Shown: piece by piece, positions 5,892 through 62,189 of the stretch | Numbering within the stretch: the stretch's first letter is position 1 | Layout: the number at the start of each line of letters is the position of its first letter | From: a virus | Taxonomy: Duplodnaviria; Caudoviricetes | Strand: one strand, 5' to 3' | DNA length: 64,000 bases | Virus record (IMG/VR): IMGVR_UViG_3300010355_001062 | Location: 11,321-75,320 of that record | Notes under the pieces: model-generated | Told to the model about the DNA's origin: nothing | Database searches by the model: none | Seen by the model: the letters and a program-made list of their open reading frames with translations, nothing else | Made by a program: the position numbers and the translations under genes

Positions 5892-6734
5892 TCAGAAATA
5901 TCGAATTTCTTTTAAGCCGGACAAATTTTCCTTATTATCAAGCATCCATTGTTTAGCTTGAGCGTAAGGAGCCGGGCAGAACATGTTATAAATAACCTCA
6001 CTGTAGCCCGTGAGCAGATAATTATCGAATAGGTAATTATAGGCCGAACTAGGTAAGTTATTGTATACGCAAATACAGTTCAATACATCATCCACAATAC
6101 CGGTACGTAAAAAGTGTTCTTTGGTTTCAGTGTCAATCTCTTTTATACACGCACTGAATCGCTGGAATTGCGATTCATTATATACTGGAGGCACGTTATC
6201 ACCTGGACAACCTAGAAAAGCTTTCTTCACATTAGCCTTAACGGCTATGTCAATAGCTATTGAGTGATCATTAGGTAACCTGTATTCCTTCCTATCAGAA
6301 TATTTCAGCCAGCTATGGCCATGCCCACGTACCATAGCTTCGAAATCGCCATCATTGCTTACTAATCGAGCTATAGCATAATGGCTAGTCAATATGTAAG
6401 CTAAATCATCGGCTTCTAAGCCTTCGATACCGAAAGTGAGAAAAGCACCAGCCAACCTTTCCTCAGTCTCCGGCCGTATTTCCATGTATTTTTCGTTACC
6501 CACTCTGCCATTTTTATAGCTAGGGCTTAAAGCCTTTCTCCAAGCACGTCCCTTATCCATCACTAGCACTGTAGCATGTTTATTGGATTGTGTCTTAGAG
6601 CTTAGCTCCAGTGCTTTAACTGCCTCAATGACTTTATTAGCTAGTTGCTCTGCTGTTATGTCTTCTTGTGCAGTGTATTTACTGATCACATAGTAGTTAG
6701 CTAGAGTGACGATAGAGTTATCTATTATTAACAT
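5892..6734 (-). CDS. 5'-3' exonuclease / FEN-RNase H-like
   Basis: MDKGRAWRK..SPSYKNGR, EADDL, SNDGDF, LGCPGDNVP. Confidence 0.88.
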   Translation of the reverse strand: MLIIDNSIVTLANYYVISKYTAQEDITAEQLANKVIEAVKALELSSKTQSNKHATVLVMDKGRAWRKALSPSYKNGRVGNEKYMEIRPETEERLAGAFLTFGIEGLEADDLAYILTSHYAIARLVSNDGDFEAMVRGHGHSWLKYSDRKEYRLPNDHSIAIDIAVKANVKKAFLGCPGDNVPPVYNESQFQRFSACIKEIDTETKEHFLRTGIVDDVLNCICVYNNLPSSAYNYLFDNYLLTGYSEVIYNMFCPAPYAQAKQWMLDNKENLSGLKEIRYF

Positions 6735-7653
6735 TGTGTAGTTGTTTTTGTCTTAGAAAATTAGTTAGTTTCTGATCTACGATCTCGCTTTTGTAGTAAA
6801 ACACTCTAGCGAATTCTGGGCCTCCTAGCTCTAGCAATTCGCATATGCAAAGTAAGTATTTGAATACATCTATGGCTTCTTCTACTGCATGATTCCTATC
6901 GATAGTAGCAGGCCCTGGCTGATGTAGTTTATACTTCGTAGCCCTTAGTAGCTCGAAAGTCTCGTCGGTTAACGCAAGTATATATTCGTGCACGCGCTTA
7001 ATCTTAGCTGATTTGCTCATGCGCTTCACATCGTAGATGCGTGAATTAAAAGCGCTTTGTACTTGCATAAATTTCGCTAAGTCAATAGCGGGTTGTACAT
7101 CTGGAGTTATCAAGCGCTCACAAGCTGTCATAACTCCTTGTAATGAATCTTGCGGTGCAATCAAGCGATAGCTAGCAAAACACTTAGCTTCGTCTAGCAT
7201 CGACTTACGTAAGCTATAGAAAGCTTCCTCTGAATAGGTAAGGCCATTTTTCTCGGCTGCGCCACGTTCGATATAAAGGTCGTACGTATTATCCAGAATT
7301 AATAATGTATAATCAAGTGCCTTAAGTCGACTACGCAAATCTTCTGGCGGGATTATCATAGCCTCCAAGCCTATATTCTTTTGGCGAATAGGGCCGTATA
7401 CCAATTCAGTAAATGGCGAACGATCGCATAGAATAATAGCATCCTCAGGCATGTTATCAACAAAACCGTAGAAAGCCTCCACACATCCAGCATAAAAATA
7501 TGCTATATGCTCTCTAGCATATTCAGGTATATTATCCTTCATCGAATATAAGAAAGCATTATAGCCTTGTTGCTTTAGCTTAGTGGTAAGCAACGCAGCT
7601 ACAGTTGTTTTACCAGTTCTGGGTAAGCCGTCAAATAGGATTACTTTTTTCAT
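6718..7653 (-). CDS. dNMP/thymidylate kinase fused to an all-alpha (MazG/dimeric dUTPase/dCTPase-like) NTP pyrophosphatase
   Basis: N-terminal DGLPRTGKTT and DRSPFTELVYG; C-terminal DETFEL...EEAIDVFKYL (ExxE...ExxD). Confidence 0.8.
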   Translation of the reverse strand: MKKVILFDGLPRTGKTTVAALLTTKLKQQGYNAFLYSMKDNIPEYAREHIAYFYAGCVEAFYGFVDNMPEDAIILCDRSPFTELVYGPIRQKNIGLEAMIIPPEDLRSRLKALDYTLLILDNTYDLYIERGAAEKNGLTYSEEAFYSLRKSMLDEAKCFASYRLIAPQDSLQGVMTACERLITPDVQPAIDLAKFMQVQSAFNSRIYDVKRMSKSAKIKRVHEYILALTDETFELLRATKYKLHQPGPATIDRNHAVEEAIDVFKYLLCICELLELGGPEFARVFYYKSEIVDQKLTNFLRQKQLHNVNNR

Positions 7654-8744
7654 GTGTTAAGTGCTTTTAATAGAGCGCTCTCCAGCTCTGTATGATCATT
7701 TATTATCCATTCGTGATCCGGTATTTCGTCATTCGGTACTGTAATTATAGTATTACCGTAGTCTAGCGCTTCGTAACAAGTGTAGTGTAGGCAATGATGC
7801 ATAGGTTCTAGTAATGGTATTATACAACCGGCCCCATACTGTAATAGGCTATGATAAGTAGCCTTATCCGAACTATAGATGGTGTTGCCAATGCTAACGC
7901 CATTGGAATCGTGCAATACGTACGGTGAGTATACTTTATAGCCTTGCTTTAGTAGACCATGTAGCACATTAGCTATTATAGGTACTTTATAAGGCTCATG
8001 CGATGGTTTCCAAGGTACTAATATAAAAGGAGCTGTAATGTGCTTGGGTTTTGCCATAACAGGGGCTATACCGCGTACCAAAAGATCACCTGATTTATAA
8101 CCCTTGGTTATTCTACTAGCTTCTGGGTATAGAGCTAATTGGTCTAAAGTACCAACCAGCATTGGTATATTGTTATAGAGCTCCCCATCTATGTATTTCA
8201 TTTTACGATATGACTCTATAGTGCACTCCGCGCCAGCTATAGCATAAGCAAGATATACTATGTCGATATTTTTGTATGCTTTTATTGCATCTAATAGCGA
8301 CAATGCTGCTTTCTGTGGAGCAATATAGATAGTATTGAAGTAACGTAATATAGTGTGTATTTTGCACATATCGTTGATATGTAGAGAGCGTGTATGGCGT
8401 GGGTCTTCGCCATAGGTCATAAATAAATACACTATATTTATACCACGTGCCCACATGTTTTCCTGAATGCTTGCAAGATAGCCTAAACCGGCTGTGGTAA
8501 GTTTCTCGGGTACAGCTATACAATATAATGTATCATTGTCGGCTATAGTTTGTATAAACCCAAGCACTGTCAGTAAATTACCATCACGCTCTATATTATA
8601 AAAGCCGTCGCTCCTATAGCCATAAACAGGTATGAATAAGCTCTTTTGTGCAAAATTACCGTGAACTCTGTCATAGCTATTTAGTAATAAGCTTGGAGTT
8701 AATGCCCAGTATAATCCACTTATTTTATCAGAGTAAGCTAGCAT
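7650..8744 (-). CDS. putative DNA glycosyltransferase (GT-B-like)
   Basis: LFIPVYGYRSDGFYNIERDGN, YGEDPRHTR, ILVPWKPSHEPY, IIPLLE...YEALDY resemble, from memory, an RB69/Mosigvirus-type protein from the cytosine arabinosylation locus; unverified. Confidence 0.55.
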   Translation of the reverse strand: MLAYSDKISGLYWALTPSLLLNSYDRVHGNFAQKSLFIPVYGYRSDGFYNIERDGNLLTVLGFIQTIADNDTLYCIAVPEKLTTAGLGYLASIQENMWARGINIVYLFMTYGEDPRHTRSLHINDMCKIHTILRYFNTIYIAPQKAALSLLDAIKAYKNIDIVYLAYAIAGAECTIESYRKMKYIDGELYNNIPMLVGTLDQLALYPEASRITKGYKSGDLLVRGIAPVMAKPKHITAPFILVPWKPSHEPYKVPIIANVLHGLLKQGYKVYSPYVLHDSNGVSIGNTIYSSDKATYHSLLQYGAGCIIPLLEPMHHCLHYTCYEALDYGNTIITVPNDEIPDHEWIINDHTELESALLKALNT

Positions 8745-9450
8745 GCTTTGTCATTACTACGATGAATGTTTTATATTTGTCGTCTCGCTCTATGATTCGG
8801 AAGTCCCACCCTTTCTTTATGGCTATATTCTCAGCAGTATACACATTCATGTAATCGATGAAGCCATCACGAGCTGCATCATCGCAGTGGTACTCCATCA
8901 TCACAAACTCAAGTTGTGAAGCTAGGAGCTCGTCGAAAAAAGTATGCTCAGCTCCCTCGACATCAATCTTTGCACACTTAGCGTTAGTCATATTCATGAC
9001 ATAGCTGAATTGTAATGCTTTGATAGGTAGCCGAGTCACGGAATGTGTATCGCTTAAACCCGGTGCCAGTGTGTGCCTACCTGAATTGGTGCCGAGATTA
9101 CCATATAATATAAATTGCTCCAGATTATTAGGCCCTACGATTGCATAATTCAATGGCACTATATCGTCGTAATACGCTGTATTCTTCGACAATAGCGCAA
9201 AATTGAATGGCTCTGGCTCGAAAGTATAAATGCGCGAAGCACCTCGTCTATGTATTTTAATAGAGGAGCTACCTACATGCCCACCTATATCTAACCAGAT
9301 AGGTTGTATAAATTGGCTCTCACTGCCTTCGTGGCTAACCATGCTTTTAGCTAAGTACTCTTTATAAAGAGTATCTAGTATATTATCGTATGCTTTCTCA
9401 GCTACCACGAAAGCATCGGCTTTATGTTCTCTTATTAACCTCACTAGCAT
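8728..9450 (-). CDS. FkbM-family SAM-dependent methyltransferase
   Basis: WLDIGGHVG, YTFEPEPFNF, KIDVEGAE. Confidence 0.9.
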   Translation of the reverse strand: MLVRLIREHKADAFVVAEKAYDNILDTLYKEYLAKSMVSHEGSESQFIQPIWLDIGGHVGSSSIKIHRRGASRIYTFEPEPFNFALLSKNTAYYDDIVPLNYAIVGPNNLEQFILYGNLGTNSGRHTLAPGLSDTHSVTRLPIKALQFSYVMNMTNAKCAKIDVEGAEHTFFDELLASQLEFVMMEYHCDDAARDGFIDYMNVYTAENIAIKKGWDFRIIERDDKYKTFIVVMTKHASLL

Positions 9451-10169
9451 CCTATAAGTTTTTTCGCTTGTTCAATATTGTTTGCATAGATGTGCGACGA
9501 AGCTATTTGGAAACTCAATGAATTAAGTTTATAGCTTACTGTATCAAGCCTACCAAGCGCTGTGACAAATGCTTCTACAAATTTGCTTATGTTATACAAA
9601 TCATATAGCATAGTTATATAGGCATTGGATGACCTGAATGTAGCCACTACATCGATATTGTAGTGGAAGCCTATATCGGCGTCGCGCTTGAATATGACAA
9701 TATCGCTACAGCACGGATATTCCAAATTAGTGTTAATATCGCGCAAGAAATCATCGGACTTATCCAGTATATGAAATACTACACGTCTGGAGTTATCGCG
9801 CTGTATTTCGCGCAGGTTACCTTCCAATTGGCTCAATAACCTAGGGCCGTAAGCCGTAGAGAAATTAGCTGGTATCTCAGCTCCCGGCATGAAACGACGC
9901 ACGCTAGGATTTATCTGAGCTAGCTCCTCCATGTCAGTGGAGCCGGACATCATCCAATCGCAGAATTTTTGCGCGTAAGCATAATTCCAGTGCGGAAAAG
10001 CTTTATTCATGTGTTCCCAAGAATGAGGCCATTCGCATTTGAATGAGTAATTTATAATCTCATTCATATAGCCGAGCCGGCTATCGCATACATAATCAGG
10101 ATGCTGTATTAACTCAGTGAGCAGGGCCATATAGCTCCTTACTAAAGATGTGTCCTTTGTCGGTTTCAT
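9444..10169 (-). CDS. thymidylate-synthase-fold dCMP-modifying enzyme (gp42-like)
   Basis: DSRLG, NFSTAYGPR, SRR, catalytic YPC, RSSN...YD with Asp at the E. coli TS Asn177 position, SHIY. Start moved to ATG 10169 (track: 10268). Confidence 0.85.
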   Translation of the reverse strand: MKPTKDTSLVRSYMALLTELIQHPDYVCDSRLGYMNEIINYSFKCEWPHSWEHMNKAFPHWNYAYAQKFCDWMMSGSTDMEELAQINPSVRRFMPGAEIPANFSTAYGPRLLSQLEGNLREIQRDNSRRVVFHILDKSDDFLRDINTNLEYPCCSDIVIFKRDADIGFHYNIDVVATFRSSNAYITMLYDLYNISKFVEAFVTALGRLDTVSYKLNSLSFQIASSHIYANNIEQAKKLIGC

Positions 10170-10668
10170 AGAAATGATATTGAAAGTTTTCAGCATAATA
10201 GCGAATGCATAATTCGATAAGTGCTGCAAATAGATGTTTGTCGAATTTGGATGATTTAGGCTTAACACCGGCTAATAAACTTACATCCCAATCCAGCTTA
10301 CGAAAATTGCTTTCTAAGTCTGCTAGTGTAACGCCGAACACAGTAAACTGGAAATTACCCTTAGTTATGAGTTGTGGTCTGACACCGAATACATGCTCCA
10401 TATTAAATGAATGTACCTCAGCATCCGCCCAAGAGTCGCCGGTCAATTCACGCATTATTTTCATGCCTCCGCGCACTATAGCACCGAAATAGAAACGATT
10501 CTGGTCTAGCGTACGTAGCTCTTTCTTCTCAGTACACTCAACCGTAAACTCTGGCTCGGTTGAATGGTATATAATCGATTTATTGATCAATGGGCTATTT
10601 ACTTTTAAGTAAAGCTCATTATCGATTATTACTTTAGTACAGTTTAGCTGAATTGGTTTCATAGACAT
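10114..10668 (-). CDS. NinB/Orf-like recombination mediator
   Basis: RTLDQNRFYF...W..AEVH...SSKFDK..FA.LIE pattern. Confidence 0.6.
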   Translation of the reverse strand: MSMKPIQLNCTKVIIDNELYLKVNSPLINKSIIYHSTEPEFTVECTEKKELRTLDQNRFYFGAIVRGGMKIMRELTGDSWADAEVHSFNMEHVFGVRPQLITKGNFQFTVFGVTLADLESNFRKLDWDVSLLAGVKPKSSKFDKHLFAALIELCIRYYAENFQYHFYETDKGHIFSKELYGPAH

Positions 10669-10672
10669 AGTT

Positions 10673-10703
10673 ATAGCCGAAGGTAACGTGTACCTTCGGC
10701 TAT
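10673..10703 (-). terminator. 13-bp stem hairpin after the SSB gene
   Basis: ATAGCCGAAGGTA-ACGTG-TACCTTCGGCTAT. Confidence 0.7.
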
Positions 10704-11691: not shown

Positions 11692-14328
11692 TTATTCAAG
11701 TTTAATGAAGCAATTTCTGATGGCTGATGCTATTTGATCAGCACTATCGTATTTGATGTCCTTGAACTCGTGCCAGTTAGTTTTAGTAACAGACCAGTCT
11801 ATATTCATAGGCACAACTAAACGTGAAACATCCACATTCAGATAGTCATCGGCTCTTGGGTTAACCATCAAATCTTCATAAATCGGAGCTAGAATATCCA
11901 TAAAAGCATCGGACATATAGATGTGAACAGAGTCATGTATCGTATTACTAAATCTGGACATATCGTGGGGTATAAGCTTACTTAATACCCCCATAGCGAA
12001 TATAGTCCACTCGCCAGACGATCCTTGAATTGGTGAGTTAATAGCTTGACGTTTAGCTTTAGCCACGAGCTTACGGTCGTATGAGTAAATATCCGGCAGT
12101 CTCCGCTTACGGCCGAAAATAGTACGTACATAGCCGAATTTCTGTGCTTTGGCTTTATATATTTCCCACCATTCAGGTAGCCGTTTGTAGACTTTCAGCA
12201 ACCCATCTAATTGCTTCCTAGCTTCCTCTTCGCTTATGATCTTACCATTGGTAGCTCTACGCACATAATCAATATAGCCGAATACGCTAATACCGTATGT
12301 ACCAGAAAAATTACCCATCTTTCCCCAAGTCCTGCCCTGTTTATAAGCTACTGGATCAGTTACGGCTAGCGCTTTGAATTCTTCTAGCGATAATTCCATA
12401 ATACCTGAACCAGATACTGAGTGCAAATCTTGCTTATCCAGATAAGCTTGTTGCATAGTTTCATCGCCGGAAACGTTTGCAATCAAGCGTAGCTCAGCTT
12501 GCGAATAATCGATCTGAATAAATGTCTGCGGGCCGTATTTATTCGGCGGTGGGCATATAAAACATCTACGCACAGTATTTACACCCCACACCAAATCCTG
12601 ATCATCGCGTATATATACGTGATTACTGATATTTTGCAGATTGGGGTTGGAGGCGGAAACCCTACCAGTCCGTGTGCCATGACATTTATACTCAGTATGC
12701 AGAAATCCTTGTGGGTCGGGTAGAGTATCGAAAGCTTTGTAGTAAGTATTGCGCAGCTTAGTTACCATCTTAATGGTTGAGAACGTAAGCAAAATATCCG
12801 AGTTAAATCTCTGAGCTAATTCCAATATATAACCTTTGTCGGTCTTAGCTTCTTTCTCACCCTTCATACCAACTTTCATCGGCATGTCCATAAACTCATA
12901 GCCATATAACCATTCTCTAACTTTGATAGGCGAACCTAATGAAAATTTTACTTCCGGCACGGAAGTTCTAGCAGCTACAATATCATCACTCCATTTCGTC
13001 AGAAATCGCTGTCTAGGTAATTCTTTAGCTCGCTCAGCGTCAATCTTAGCTTGTATAGCCGCTATGGTAGTTTGCTGAGCTTTATCTTGTAAATATAGCA
13101 AATAAGCTTTAACTTTCGGGTGAGCATAAAATTCTCTAGTCCTTCGCTCTATCGCTTCTGAGCATTTTTCAATAGCCTCGGCAACCTGGGCTTTATTGAT
13201 TAATGACCCTCGAAATGATGTCCAAGCTAATGCCCAAGCTGATGGCATTACATGTGATCTGAATAAACGATATAATGTGCCATCGCCATCATCAGTTAAT
13301 AGCATCCACTCGAATTGTATGCAAGCTCTGATAGTCATATCAGCATCAGTAGCTCCGTATGCTGCTAGCTCTTTCATTGGAATAGCTGCCCAGTCTGTAT
13401 CGGGTGGTAATTCACGCTGGTAGCCAGCGAATTCAGGAAAATAAGTCTCGGTGATTATTTTCAAGCCGTTCAATGTATTCTCGTCTAATACATGTGAGGC
13501 TAGCATTACATCAAACCATTCGCCGTAAAATTTGGTCATTCCCATTTGCATGCACCAAATACCTTCCATCATTAGGTTATGCACGACTTTTCTTATCGAG
13601 GTATTAGCGAAAATCTTTTCTTCGATCTCAGAGTTGATATAAGCTATCCTGTCCATTATGGACCACCCCTCCCATTCCACAGTCTCAAAATGCATATACG
13701 GTATAATTACCGCTTTGCCTGGACGCGTCGCTACGGACATGATAGTTACATAGCCTAGCCATGATTTCAAGCTAGTTGTCTCGAAGTCAAATGCCCATAG
13801 TTTGTCGATCTGAGCTTGCGCTATCAAATCGTCGAATTCAGCTTTAGTAGTTATAATAATATGCTCAGTAAGAGCGGGCTTTGCTCTAGCTTGCTCCAAA
13901 CCTGTAACAGCGAAATATAATTCATCGAATATCCTTTTCGCTATCTTCTGCTCGTAAGCTGGGTTCTGCTCAACAGCAGAAGGTGAATAGCAAGGAATCC
14001 ATGTAGTGCCATTTTCTTGCACTATACGCTGCTCTACTAATTCGCTCATCTTGCCGACCAGACCGAATACTTTGCTTACTCTAGCTCCGAGTAAAAATAT
14101 TACTTGGTAATCAGCATACTTATTAAAGTCTACTGATTTCCTAAGCTGAGCATCCGATAACTTCAACTCGCTATCGGTATTTAAGTATTGATAATCGAAA
14201 GTTATATGTTCCGGTACTTTTATAGCACCTGTATCGAATAATGCACGGCACAGATAGTTATAGCCACGGCTGAAATCACCTCGGTTATCTACTCCAGGTC
14301 TATTGTCACTTAGAAATAGAACTCTCAT
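11692..14328 (-). CDS. polA: family A DNA polymerase with N-terminal UDG-like and 3'-5' exonuclease domains
   Basis: Exo I FDFETT; TRTGRVSASNPNLQNI; motif A IDYSQAELR; motif B RTWGKMGNFSGTYG; motif C IHDS; N-terminal IFLLG...PCYSPSAV. Confidence 0.95.
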   Translation of the reverse strand: MRVLFLSDNRPGVDNRGDFSRGYNYLCRALFDTGAIKVPEHITFDYQYLNTDSELKLSDAQLRKSVDFNKYADYQVIFLLGARVSKVFGLVGKMSELVEQRIVQENGTTWIPCYSPSAVEQNPAYEQKIAKRIFDELYFAVTGLEQARAKPALTEHIIITTKAEFDDLIAQAQIDKLWAFDFETTSLKSWLGYVTIMSVATRPGKAVIIPYMHFETVEWEGWSIMDRIAYINSEIEEKIFANTSIRKVVHNLMMEGIWCMQMGMTKFYGEWFDVMLASHVLDENTLNGLKIITETYFPEFAGYQRELPPDTDWAAIPMKELAAYGATDADMTIRACIQFEWMLLTDDGDGTLYRLFRSHVMPSAWALAWTSFRGSLINKAQVAEAIEKCSEAIERRTREFYAHPKVKAYLLYLQDKAQQTTIAAIQAKIDAERAKELPRQRFLTKWSDDIVAARTSVPEVKFSLGSPIKVREWLYGYEFMDMPMKVGMKGEKEAKTDKGYILELAQRFNSDILLTFSTIKMVTKLRNTYYKAFDTLPDPQGFLHTEYKCHGTRTGRVSASNPNLQNISNHVYIRDDQDLVWGVNTVRRCFICPPPNKYGPQTFIQIDYSQAELRLIANVSGDETMQQAYLDKQDLHSVSGSGIMELSLEEFKALAVTDPVAYKQGRTWGKMGNFSGTYGISVFGYIDYVRRATNGKIISEEEARKQLDGLLKVYKRLPEWWEIYKAKAQKFGYVRTIFGRKRRLPDIYSYDRKLVAKAKRQAINSPIQGSSGEWTIFAMGVLSKLIPHDMSRFSNTIHDSVHIYMSDAFMDILAPIYEDLMVNPRADDYLNVDVSRLVVPMNIDWSVTKTNWHEFKDIKYDSADQIASAIRNCFIKLE

Positions 14329-57228: not shown

Positions 57229-57685
57229 TGCTTATGATTAATGGAATTCCGTAATGTTTGTGTAGTTCAAGGATTGTAGCATATTCCCCTGTGTATTCTC
57301 CCCAACCTTCGGGTACGATACCTTCGTGGATGTAAAACATCCTAGTATATAGCATTATTTTGCTACTTGTGATTATCGTCGCTATGAGCTTGTTTGGATG
57401 ATACTGCGCAGGTATATTTACGCTTAGGGCTTGTGCAAGACTGCACTGTATAGTAAATGGGATATGCGCAGAGTCCGGGTTGGTTAAGTGAGGGTATTGG
57501 GGATTGATTCCATATAATTTCCCATCGAAACGAATAAGGAGCTGGATTTGAGTAACTACTTTGGGGAAATCTCTGAATGAGCCTTTATAGTTACCATAGC
57601 TGGAATAGCTTGGGAATGGTAGCTCATGGTCATTGATATGTTCGTCGATATTTTCCATAGTGTGTAGCTTAACGATAGTATTCAT
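57197..57685 (-). CDS. hypothetical protein
   Basis: Coupled ORF. Confidence 0.6.
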   Translation of the reverse strand: MNTIVKLHTMENIDEHINDHELPFPSYSSYGNYKGSFRDFPKVVTQIQLLIRFDGKLYGINPQYPHLTNPDSAHIPFTIQCSLAQALSVNIPAQYHPNKLIATIITSSKIMLYTRMFYIHEGIVPEGWGEYTGEYATILELHKHYGIPLIISNADTFYTNNP

Positions 57686-58190
57686 TGAAATGTATCAAGA
57701 AATCTTCTTTAGCCTCTTCCGGTGTCAGTATTAAGCCTCTGATGTCTCTAGTAAGTAGCTTATGTTCATAGTCTGGGTTACGTAGTACTAGAGCTTCGTA
57801 TTCATGAACTAGTACTAAAGCATCGATCATCTTTACATGGTTTTCGACAGTGAAGCCGAATTTAGCTTCTATAGCCTCCTGCAAGCGAGCCTCTATTGCT
57901 TGATAATCGGGTAGTCTCTTCTTTATGGGACTAGGTATATCTAACAAATAAGCTTCACTCGCATCGTGTAGAAGTGCAGCTAACTGGTGTCCTTCTTGAG
58001 CCTGCCTGCAGCAAACTATTGAATGTTGAGCTACTGAATAAAAGTGTCTCAAATGACCCCCAAATCGGCATTGGTGGCTTAGCGCATGCGCGATGTCTTC
58101 GATGTCGATTAGTTCGGGGTCTGGTTCGAATACATTTATGTATTTGCCAGTGAAAGTACGAATGCAATCTTGGGTGTATAGATTCTCCAT
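57669..58190 (-). CDS. HD-domain phosphohydrolase (YfbR-like 5'-deoxynucleotidase)
   Basis: IAHALSHQCRFGGH...YSVAQHS...LLHDASEAY..DIPSPIK. Confidence 0.88.
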   Translation of the reverse strand: MENLYTQDCIRTFTGKYINVFEPDPELIDIEDIAHALSHQCRFGGHLRHFYSVAQHSIVCCRQAQEGHQLAALLHDASEAYLLDIPSPIKKRLPDYQAIEARLQEAIEAKFGFTVENHVKMIDALVLVHEYEALVLRNPDYEHKLLTRDIRGLILTPEEAKEDFLIHFNEYYR

Positions 58191-60366: not shown

Positions 60367-60747
60367 TTATATAGCCACATTCTTATACGGTAGTTTATCT
60401 CTGTCACTGCATTCCACAACTAATTTAGCAAAATGCTTATTAGTATAGTCAGTTATACGCATGATACTAGAACAAGCATATATCAAACCCGGTTCGAAAG
60501 TACGAAATAGCTGAAACGAGCAATAACCCTCAAGCATAGGTAAGTTAAGTTCTAATGGTTTAACATTCTCCCATTCGATCTTTTGTTCGAATAACTTCTC
60601 TGTCGTTTCTTTAAACCGTTTAGCTAGGTATACATCCTTTCGCATATCTACTAAACAAGGCCACAGGCTATCGGCGAATTCGAATAAACCTATTCTAGTA
60701 CCTGTGTCGTTGTAGATTAAACCTATAGCGTATGGTGTTGTTTTCAT
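60367..60747 (-). CDS. hypothetical protein
   Basis: Coupled to monooxygenase stop. Confidence 0.6.
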   Translation of the reverse strand: MKTTPYAIGLIYNDTGTRIGLFEFADSLWPCLVDMRKDVYLAKRFKETTEKLFEQKIEWENVKPLELNLPMLEGYCSFQLFRTFEPGLIYACSSIMRITDYTNKHFAKLVVECSDRDKLPYKNVAI

Positions 60748-62189
60748 AGTTTAATTAGTTTAGTATAACCATATTCCGATTTCGCCATAACGGTTACAAA
60801 ATATACCCCAGCTGATAAATCGGATATATCTATAGTCCGTGCAGCAGTTAAGCTCTTCACTACTCGCCCTGCTGTATCGTATATACATACTAAACCTTCT
60901 ATAGGTAAATTGAATCGATCCCTAGCAGGATTTGGATAGCCTACCAGCTTTAGCTTAGGCAACTCCGTACTACTAGTTTTAACCCCATTAGCTAAGTCAA
61001 GCAATTCGTCACCTAACTTATATTCAGTGAAGGTAAAGTACACTAACATCATTTCGTCCGAGCTACTAGCACCGTCACGAATATTACGATTGGTGTAGTT
61101 ATCGTATGTAGCTTCAGCTTGTAATACATCCCCAACATTAGCTATTAAAGGCGTAGGTAATTCATAACCCAATTGCCAATGGAAATTCCAGTTGTTGATC
61201 CTGATAATTCTAGTAGTATCTTTAGCAGTGTTAAGTTTCCACACTTTAACACTCTTGCCCACAGAATGCATGTGGGGCATGACCGAAATCATAGTTAACT
61301 TTTTAACTATACTCGATTCCGCACTAAAAATAGTAGTTTTATTAGCTGGTATAAACAAACCAGTAGCGAAATGGTTTAGCAATGGCTCCGTTTTCAGTTC
61401 GCGTAATTTGCTTGAGCTTAATCTAGCTAAGAAACTAGTTTGATCTTTTTGTCCCATTGAACCCGGTGCATAATGCACCTGTATAATTATTGTAGCTGCT
61501 TTTGCTAGAAATTGCCCCATACCCTTCGGGTAAATGGTAGGATCAGACCCAGGAACCCAAGCGCCTATTTGCTTTGCACTAGCTGAACCTACTCCCCAGT
61601 AGCTTGTGTAACCCAGCTCTTTATCTAAAGCATCTAGCTTATAGGGGATATTAGAAGTATCAGCATATACCAATATATGATGCACTATGTTTTTGTTTCC
61701 CGGAATACATTTGAAGCTAGTTATAAATTGATCTAATGATAATCCAGTAGGCAACGGGAAGCATCGATAGACATCGCCATTATTAGGCACTGTATATTCT
61801 GGTATAGCTATTTCTAAGTCATGGGGCCAGAATTCATTAGTATAGACTGGTGGTATAGGTGTATCTTGTGGCCTACCGTAGGGAGCTGAACTACGTACCC
61901 ATTCCTCTATTAAGTGAATTTCGTCGGCAGTCATCAAACGCTCATTCTGAAAGTGAGAGTAGCTTGGGTCAGCTGGCCAGGGCGGCATACGCAAATTCTT
62001 CGTAGAATAGGCTATACTATAGCGGTTAACGTATGTTTCTTCGTATGTTACCAGCGAGAATGGTGCTATGCCATTATCATTATGGCAGGAAGTACAGTGC
62101 CGATATAAGATAGGAGCAATGTCTAGCGTCCATACTGGAGTGTGGCACTGCGCTTGCAGTGCCACTAATAAGATAAATAGAGTTCTCAT
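60744..62189 (-). CDS. secreted heme c / copper type II (PHM-like) monooxygenase with T9SS C-terminal domain
   Basis: Hydrophobic leader; CTSCH and MPPW; VHHIL, QVHY, PHMH, DEMM; YPNP...IYDTAGR...IDISDLSAGVYFV...KLIK. Confidence 0.88.
   Translation of the reverse strand: MRTLFILLVALQAQCHTPVWTLDIAPILYRHCTSCHNDNGIAPFSLVTYEETYVNRYSIAYSTKNLRMPPWPADPSYSHFQNERLMTADEIHLIEEWVRSSAPYGRPQDTPIPPVYTNEFWPHDLEIAIPEYTVPNNGDVYRCFPLPTGLSLDQFITSFKCIPGNKNIVHHILVYADTSNIPYKLDALDKELGYTSYWGVGSASAKQIGAWVPGSDPTIYPKGMGQFLAKAATIIIQVHYAPGSMGQKDQTSFLARLSSSKLRELKTEPLLNHFATGLFIPANKTTIFSAESSIVKKLTMISVMPHMHSVGKSVKVWKLNTAKDTTRIIRINNWNFHWQLGYELPTPLIANVGDVLQAEATYDNYTNRNIRDGASSSDEMMLVYFTFTEYKLGDELLDLANGVKTSSTELPKLKLVGYPNPARDRFNLPIEGLVCIYDTAGRVVKSLTAARTIDISDLSAGVYFVTVMAKSEYGYTKLIKL

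Follow-up and report, generated by a model that had tools for sequence, protein, structure and literature searches.

The 64,000-nt stretch analyzed here (the window) makes up the final 64 kb of one 75,320-bp contig from an activated sludge phage (IMG/VR record IMGVR_UViG_3300010355_001062), and it contains a putative cytosine hypermodification module in which an FkbM-family methyltransferase (MT) gene lies between the genes for a thymidylate synthase (TS) homolog and a glycosyltransferase (GT). A preliminary description of this DNA, made from its letters, had placed four overlapping genes at 6718-10169, which agrees with the list of open reading frames (ORFs) and their translations. All four are encoded on the minus strand, as are nearly all genes:

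9444..10169, minus strand: TS homolog, predicted 5-hydroxy-dCMP (5hodCMP) synthase, 241 aa, ATG at 10169
8728..9450, minus strand: FkbM-family S-adenosylmethionine (SAM)-dependent methyltransferase, 240 aa
7650..8744, minus strand: GT-B fold glycosyltransferase (modeled fold) of the 'GT1' family adjoining 5hodCMP synthases, 364 aa
6718..7653, minus strand: fusion of a kinase with a nucleoside triphosphatase (NTPase), 311 aa
7099..7653, minus strand: thymidylate kinase (Tmk)-fold domain, residues 1-185 of the fusion
6718..7086, minus strand: all-alpha NTP pyrophosphohydrolase domain of the fusion (dimeric dUTPase/dCTPase/MazG-like), predicted dCTPase

From the TS homolog to the fusion, consecutive genes overlap by 7, 17 and 4 nt, and the next gene after the fusion, encoding a 5'-3' exonuclease, overlaps it by 17 nt. 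The four genes are translationally coupled and embedded in the replication module, which includes a family A DNA polymerase (PolA), the exonuclease and helicases.

The TS homolog matches the PDB chains 9iqu and 9iqc, described as 'thymidylate synthase', with an E-value of 1.7e-32, and scores just 15.8 bits with the Pfam TS model. In blastp comparisons it is 31% identical to gp48 of phage RB69 (E 2e-40), matches gp216 of phage RL38J1 (E 6e-20) and is 24% identical to T4 gp42 (E 9e-7); no significant match to E. coli ThyA was found. In a tblastn search of 50,697 phage records the best matches were RB69 ORF048, many RB69-like and DLP3-like (Acinetobacter) phages and Rhizobium phage RL38J1, and the matches listed grade down to weaker ones, e.g., Pelagibacter phage HTVC119P. 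The resemblance to the RB69-type enzyme named in the preliminary description is therefore there, but calling it close was an overstatement at this level of identity to gp48.

The catalytic Cys (YPC), RR and HIY that had been taken as signs of a TS fold are present in the motifs EYPC, NSRR and SHIY, and the catalytic C146, the phosphate-binding R126 and R127, and R166, S167 and H207 are invariant in the alignment. Two substitutions read earlier from the letters were borne out by the alignment, namely Asn at the position of E. coli D169 and Asp at that of N177, which governs dCMP specificity (RSSNAYITMLYD). RB69 likewise has Asn169 and Asp177 (RSQNCAVVMQLD), the same motif reading RSNDVVFGFRND in T4 and RSCDVFLGLPFN in E. 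coli. Within EYPC, a Glu occupies the E. coli L143 position. The claim that Phe replaces Glu58 stands in part: Glu58 is not conserved, and with W61/G65 as anchors of an ungapped register the residue is Phe, which in this register is common to the TS homolog, RB69 and RL38J1, whereas MAFFT gives Gln. The C-terminus is short and of the RB69 type.

RB69 gp48 and DLP3 gp80 use O2 and a flavin, which they bind loosely, to convert dCMP to 5-hydroxy-dCMP (Lee et al., NAR 2026, PMC13326640). According to the same study, Asn at the position of E. coli Asp169 is the diagnostic residue of 5hodCMP synthases, and all D169N homologs tested, including metaviromic ones and that of RL38J1, yielded 5-hydroxydeoxycytidine (5hodC). 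Every sequence-level feature of this branch is found in the TS homolog, and flavin/O2 chemistry is predicted for it. The earlier suggestion of non-classical folate chemistry agrees with this grouping, as the branch is non-folate and flavin/O2-dependent.

The 364-aa protein had no match in Pfam, PHROGs, NCBIfam or PDB sequences, nor by tblastn in the 50,697 phage records. Among 1.84 billion representative proteins, searched exhaustively with HMMER, only nine matched, one of them spuriously: P0008, a 2002-aa repeat protein, was set aside because its match came from nothing more than a short repeat. Scans of IMG/VR with the GT, the TS homolog and a TS alignment returned no relatives, one alignment in these scans being too divergent for use. 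The eight true relatives gave a confident AlphaFold2 model, with a pLDDT (predicted local distance difference test) of 80.4 and a pTM (predicted template modeling score) of 0.81. With this model, Foldseek retrieved 412 PDB chains (E<=1e-3); glycosyltransferases ranked first, 6kih, 3c4q (MshA) and 8ixp (LmbT) being the top structural matches. The same top structures are found for RB69 gp46:47, DLP3 gp79 and RL38J1 gp215, which are presumed to be the first, base-proximal glycosyltransferases of their pathways (PMC13326640). Judged by its model, the 364-aa protein is a GT-B fold glycosyltransferase with two Rossmann domains, GT4-like, in keeping with the glycosyltransferase-like protein proposed before.

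Profile comparisons tie the protein to the same enzymes. With hhalign, the 9-sequence GT profile aligned to RL38J1 gp215 with 96.2% probability (E 2.5e-9), to RB69 ORF047 with 95.6% through its N half and to RB69 ORF046 with 95.9% through its C half. This division fits a single gene split by sequencing error, as described for RB69 ORFs 046 and 047 (PMC13326640). Pairwise BLAST against the reference glycosyltransferases was marginal (E 1e-3). The family alignment contains 16 invariant positions, including a C-domain H-x4-E and an N-terminal R-x4-Y-x4-D-x-N, the latter a motif common with the base-proximal GT family. Sequence profiles thus identify the 364-aa protein as a remote homolog of RB69 gp46:47 and RL38J1 gp215, and its family assignment holds. 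It had been said to resemble closely a protein beside the RB69 gp42-type enzyme; the homology is confirmed at profile level, but it is not close, since BLAST found no match in the phage records. The GT gene lies between those of the TS homolog and the Tmk-like kinase, the FkbM gene being the sole insertion in the window.

Members of the same GT family also occur in L014:4480-10170, L015 and L017:3043-5262, where no TS homolog is found within 6 kb and a Peptidase_U32 protein adjoins the GT. Neighbors in L014 are a dCMP deaminase, a UDG-like protein, a Tmk-like kinase, a GT47-like protein and a UDP-galactopyranose mutase. RlhA and TrhP, two RNA 5-hydroxypyrimidine enzymes, are U32 proteins, so U32 may supply this GT family through a second, O2-independent route of C5 hydroxylation.

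The methyltransferase proposed for the middle of the operon passes the cut-offs of both PF05050 (E 3.6e-8, 34.2 bits; cut-off 22.7) and TIGR01444 (51.8 bits; cut-off 37.7), the models of the FkbM-family O-methyltransferases (FkbM of FK506, NoeI, RfbT-like), whose single-domain length it shares, and it matches phrog_8156 (E 1.5e-12). Known FkbM-type enzymes, such as FkbM of FK506, NoeI and RfbT, methylate alcohol hydroxyls of cyclitols and sugars. The nearest relatives of the protein are confined to related phage contigs, and tblastn against the phage records gave 8 weak matches. Inspection of one of these, in Pelagibacter phage HTVC112P, revealed neither a TS nor a GT gene beside the FkbM gene, and no FkbM gene lies near the TS locus of HTVC119P. 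None of the deposited phages examined has an FkbM gene adjoining a TS homolog, and the literature searched contained no link of the FkbM family to DNA or nucleotide hypermodification. Leads come from the ESM Atlas, where several all-viral clusters near P0003 comprise 523-908-aa proteins fusing a GT4-type glycosyltransferase and FkbM domains, and where FkbM clusters overlap with RfbT, an O-antigen sugar methyltransferase, in 11-22% of their members. A coupling of O-methylation to glycosyl transfer may be frequent among phages.

The last protein of the module had been described as a kinase-dNTPase, and a fusion of a Tmk-like kinase with an NTP pyrophosphatase domain is what we find. The kinase domain has the P-loop GLPRTGKT, scores 26.9 bits with PF02223, just under the cut-off of 27, and matches phrog_761 (E 2.5e-14), Aquifex Tmk in Foldseek (2pbr/4s35, E 1.2e-6) and RB69 gp45 in blastp (E 6e-4). 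The N-terminal domain is a P-loop kinase with a Tmk fold of the RB69 gp45 type. The C-terminal part, residues 190-311, is entirely helical; its ExxE and EExxD motifs are invariant, and it matches phrog_173, an NTP pyrophosphohydrolase family (E 5.4e-7). PF08761 (dUTPase_2) matches three of five orthologs (best E 3.3e-5), and blastp connects the domain to a stand-alone 115-aa PF08761 protein of the related locus L016 (E 1e-12) and to a 142-aa ORF of another, L004 (E 5e-6).

Conservation analysis showed that TS, FkbM and GT follow each other in this order in 8/8 related metagenomic phage loci examined, some of which share 46-65% identity (L003, L009/L010, L011 and the P0005 contig) and others 21-35% (L004, the P0009 contig and L016), the conserved order extending to divergences of 21-27% identity. 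Wherever the contig extends far enough, the GT is followed by kinase and NTPase, either fused or split, the two distant relatives L004 and L016 having them as separate genes. On the polymerase side, synteny is identical in all loci long enough to show it. Because the TS, FkbM, GT order recurs in every related locus that can be read, down to 21-35% identity, the FkbM methyltransferase is an old, fixed part of the module and not a stray insertion. The D169N substitution is kept in the TS homolog of L016. In L004 (L004:4045-4758, JGI 3300068094 contig), the gene order is TS, FkbM, two small ORFs and GT, then the separate kinase and NTPase; its TS passes the Pfam TS threshold (45.3 bits) and keeps Phe at the Glu58 position. 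In the close relatives (L003:9086-9451, P0005 and P0016 contigs), an extra 121-aa ORF without family match lies between GT and kinase fusion; it is missing from the window genome.

The preliminary description had seen no U32 peptidase, sugar isomerase or nucleotidyltransferase in the window, and the genome-wide search it asked for found none across the 75 kb either. At a Pfam threshold of E<=1e-3, the ~90 ORFs scanned across the genome include no U32 protein, sugar isomerase, nucleotidyltransferase, sugar-nucleotide enzyme or further glycosyltransferase, and none of the Pfam families of the UDP-arabinose route (arabinose-5-P isomerase, kinase/uridylyltransferase, HAD phosphatase). The whole genome also holds no paralog of GT, MT or TS. 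Single copies of these three genes and the lack of sugar-nucleotide genes fit the use of one sugar from the host pool.

Taken together, these assignments suggest the following pathway. By analogy to T4 gp56 and RB69 gp28, the C-terminal NTP pyrophosphatase domain would hydrolyze dCTP to dCMP, thereby excluding normal cytosine and feeding the TS homolog. The latter, placed in its family by sequence and in its chemistry by the published enzymes, would hydroxylate dCMP at C5 to 5-hydroxy-dCMP with flavin and O2 instead of folate. The fused Tmk-like kinase would form the diphosphate and host NDP kinase the triphosphate, which the family A polymerase of the phage would then incorporate. The single GT-B glycosyltransferase, with its modeled fold and profile-level homology, would transfer one sugar from the host NDP-sugar pool onto the 5-hydroxyl, and the FkbM enzyme would O-methylate that sugar with SAM. 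The outcome would be a methyl-glycosyl-5-hydroxycytosine shielding the DNA from host nucleases. The preliminary description had likewise proposed substitution of dC before replication, followed by glycosylation and O-methylation; this reading is supported by the computational checks, the order of the last two steps and the product being predictions. We consider it fairly probable that the module replaces cytosine in the phage DNA by a decorated 5-hydroxycytosine, with a methylated sugar as the favored product.

Several observations weigh against this pathway. The base composition of virion DNA is a prediction for this phage and for all its relatives. With Asp at position 169 (RSNDVYNVLPYD), the L004 TS departs from the hydroxylase signature, which is thus not shared by all carriers of the module; going by its sequence, either D169N is not strictly required, or the L004 phage starts from a different C5 group. 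In the window protein, the NTPase domain scores 18.3 bits with PF08761, under the cut-off of 22.9, its AlphaFold2 model was too poor for a structure search (pLDDT about 40), and its hhalign match to T4 gp56 is weak (14.8% probability). As the model failed and the gp56 link is weak, the predicted dCTP specificity is inferred from context only. The sequence of the FkbM protein gives no indication of its substrate, and many ORFs of the genome have no family match and could hide sugar enzymes. In the reference systems, single GTs showed no activity on 5-hydroxycytosine DNA, and it was left undecided whether the first sugar is added to the nucleotide or to DNA (PMC13326640). As this first glycosyl transfer has not been reconstituted there, the same uncertainty applies to our locus.

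The methyl group could also be placed on the base. In this scenario, the FkbM enzyme would methylate the 5-hydroxyl of 5-hydroxycytosine, as nucleotide or in DNA, to 5-methoxycytosine, and the GT would take the remaining sites, giving a mosaic DNA. The 5-hydroxyl is the sole new nucleophile arising from the pathway, the MT gene directly follows the hydroxylase gene with the 7-nt overlap, and T-even phages have two enzymes that share one set of acceptor sites; moreover, the literature searched does not mention 5-methoxycytosine and hence holds nothing excluding it. However, MT and GT would then compete for one oxygen, yet both are always kept together, in 8/8 loci. Methylation of the sugar is further preferred because known FkbM-type enzymes act on alcohol hydroxyls, whereas in tRNA COMT-like enzymes methylate the phenol-like 5-hydroxypyrimidines, and because the viral GT4-FkbM fusions and the RfbT-overlapping FkbM clusters point to sugars. 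We therefore regard 5-methoxycytosine as the main rival product, though a rather unlikely one.

An alternative identity of the TS homolog, as a folate-dependent dCMP hydroxymethylase or methylase like those of T4 or XP12, would lead to a glycosylated and methylated 5-hydroxymethylcytosine. It shares the Asp at N177 and the Glu at L143 with T4 gp42, and the L004 relative with its T4-like Asp169 passes the Pfam TS threshold. The window enzyme, however, has Asn169, lacks Glu58, ends in the short C-terminus of RB69 type, is far nearer to RB69 gp48 than to T4 gp42 and barely registers with the Pfam TS model, which makes a folate-dependent enzyme quite improbable. Even less credence is due to the view that the four enzymes act on free nucleotides, producing a small molecule or reshaping the dNTP pool, and that virion DNA is unmodified. 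TS homologs such as MilA do serve nucleoside-antibiotic pathways together with transferases, and DNA is not established as the acceptor of the first sugar in the known systems. Against this, the genes are coupled to and embedded in the replication module, and every characterized phage with the TS-GT-kinase triad has fully substituted DNA (PMC13326640).

Pathways to glycosylated 5-hydroxycytosine are known from Escherichia phage RB69, Acinetobacter phage DLP3, E. coli phage HY126 and Rhizobium phage RL38J1 (Lee et al., NAR 2026, PMC13326640; PDB 9iqc/9iqu/9iqz). Like these, our locus combines a TS homolog carrying D169N, N177D and L143E with a GT-B glycosyltransferase of the same remote family and an all-alpha NTP pyrophosphatase. 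The order TS, GT, Tmk-like kinase is that of RB69 gp48/47:46/45, DLP3 gp80/79/78 and RL38J1 gp216/215/214, although only the TS homolog is related to its RB69 counterpart at 31% identity, the GT being related at profile level only. In contrast to the known systems, the FkbM gene is found between TS and GT, the kinase is fused to the NTPase and there is only one GT. Genes for arabinose-5-P isomerase, kinase/uridylyltransferase, HAD phosphatase, U32 and UDP-galactopyranose mutase are lacking here, as is a T4 gp1-type dNMP kinase. Moreover, the known carriers are myoviruses of the Straboviridae or Pootjesviridae, whereas the present phage has 75 kb, a family A polymerase and a probable Bacteroidota host. 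T4, which makes glucosyl-hydroxymethylcytosine with gp42, gp1, gp56 and alpha/beta-GT, follows the same logic, in which a dCTPase acts, a TS homolog modifies dCMP at C5, a kinase dedicated to the product phosphorylates it, the polymerase incorporates it and sugar transfer comes last. It differs in using folate for hydroxymethylation where flavin/O2 hydroxylation is predicted here, in its GT family and in having no O-methyltransferase.

The underlying pathway is already published (PMC13326640), and the core of the module is thus not categorically new. New here are the conserved O-methyltransferase, the fused kinase-NTPase, the lack of sugar-activation genes, the different type of phage and the probably different host phylum. 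Hypermodification based on 5-hydroxycytosine was worked out only in 2025-2026 and solely in large myoviruses of Proteobacteria; our locus would extend it to another type of phage and probably to another host phylum, and indicates that the core of TS, GT and kinase can be carried over without genes for sugar activation. If the prediction is true, methylated sugar or methoxy groups are part of the DNA, a chemistry that no genome has shown so far and that bears on evasion of restriction and CRISPR, on DNA-labeling enzymes and on biases in metagenome sequencing. Chances are about even that the base is new to science, either an O-methylated glycosyl-5-hydroxycytosine or 5-methoxycytosine, and that FkbM represents a new class of hypermodification enzymes, widespread among phages that have a family A polymerase and infect aerobic Bacteroidota of the environment. 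With the assay already published, which combines co-expression in E. coli with liquid chromatography-mass spectrometry (LC-MS), the four small genes are open to direct testing.

A 126-nt stretch at C1:10-135 of the genome recurs as the last 126 nt of the contig. Because of this repeat at both ends, the 75-kb assembly is probably a complete phage genome, either circularly closed or with a terminal repeat. Blastn with the locus DNA found no match among deposited phage records. The exact sequence is present in activated sludge metagenomes, a part of it also in one freshwater metagenome, and no RNA datasets are among the sequencing runs listed as holding it. Sludge and freshwater are aerobic settings and thus compatible with an O2-dependent hydroxylase. 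Two further features encoded in the window, the polymerase and a secreted enzyme, are:

11692-14328: family A DNA polymerase (PolA), PF00476 E 2e-59
60744-62189, minus strand: copper type II monooxygenase N and C domains with a type IX secretion (T9SS) C-terminal sorting domain, assigned by Pfam

Both agree with the preliminary description, which had named a family A polymerase phage and a secreted copper monooxygenase. It had also named Bacteroidota as the host group. A T9SS sorting domain (PF18962, E 1.2e-10) in one ORF and the absence of Shine-Dalgarno sequences at translation starts both fit such a host, which from these sequence features is probable.

Upstream of the module, the gene order is polymerase, a 299-aa ORF and a 184-aa ORF, followed by the overlapping module chain. 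The module had been described as lying downstream of genes for a polymerase and a single-stranded DNA-binding protein (SSB). The polymerase is indeed there, two ORFs upstream, but neither ORF matched an SSB family, and the 299-aa ORF as the SSB is unsupported in Pfam, PHROGs and NCBIfam. A scan for promoters and terminators gave signals at or under chance. The 39-nt gap between the 299-aa and 184-aa ORFs, just upstream of the module, contains a hairpin with a perfect 13-bp stem (10673-10703), which may be a transcript processing or terminator element. The 184-aa ORF (10114-10668, minus strand) overlaps the TS start by 56 nt and is kept at the same place even in L004 and L016 (E 3e-13 and 1e-9); its sole lead are NinB-like ESM Atlas clusters, and it is not counted in the pathway. 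Far from the module, a 173-aa HD-domain protein (57669-58190, minus strand) weakly matches HD_3 and YfbR-like 5'-deoxynucleotidase (E 2.5e-4 and 6.5e-4, both under the cut-offs) and may, from its sequence, be an extra nucleotide-pool enzyme.

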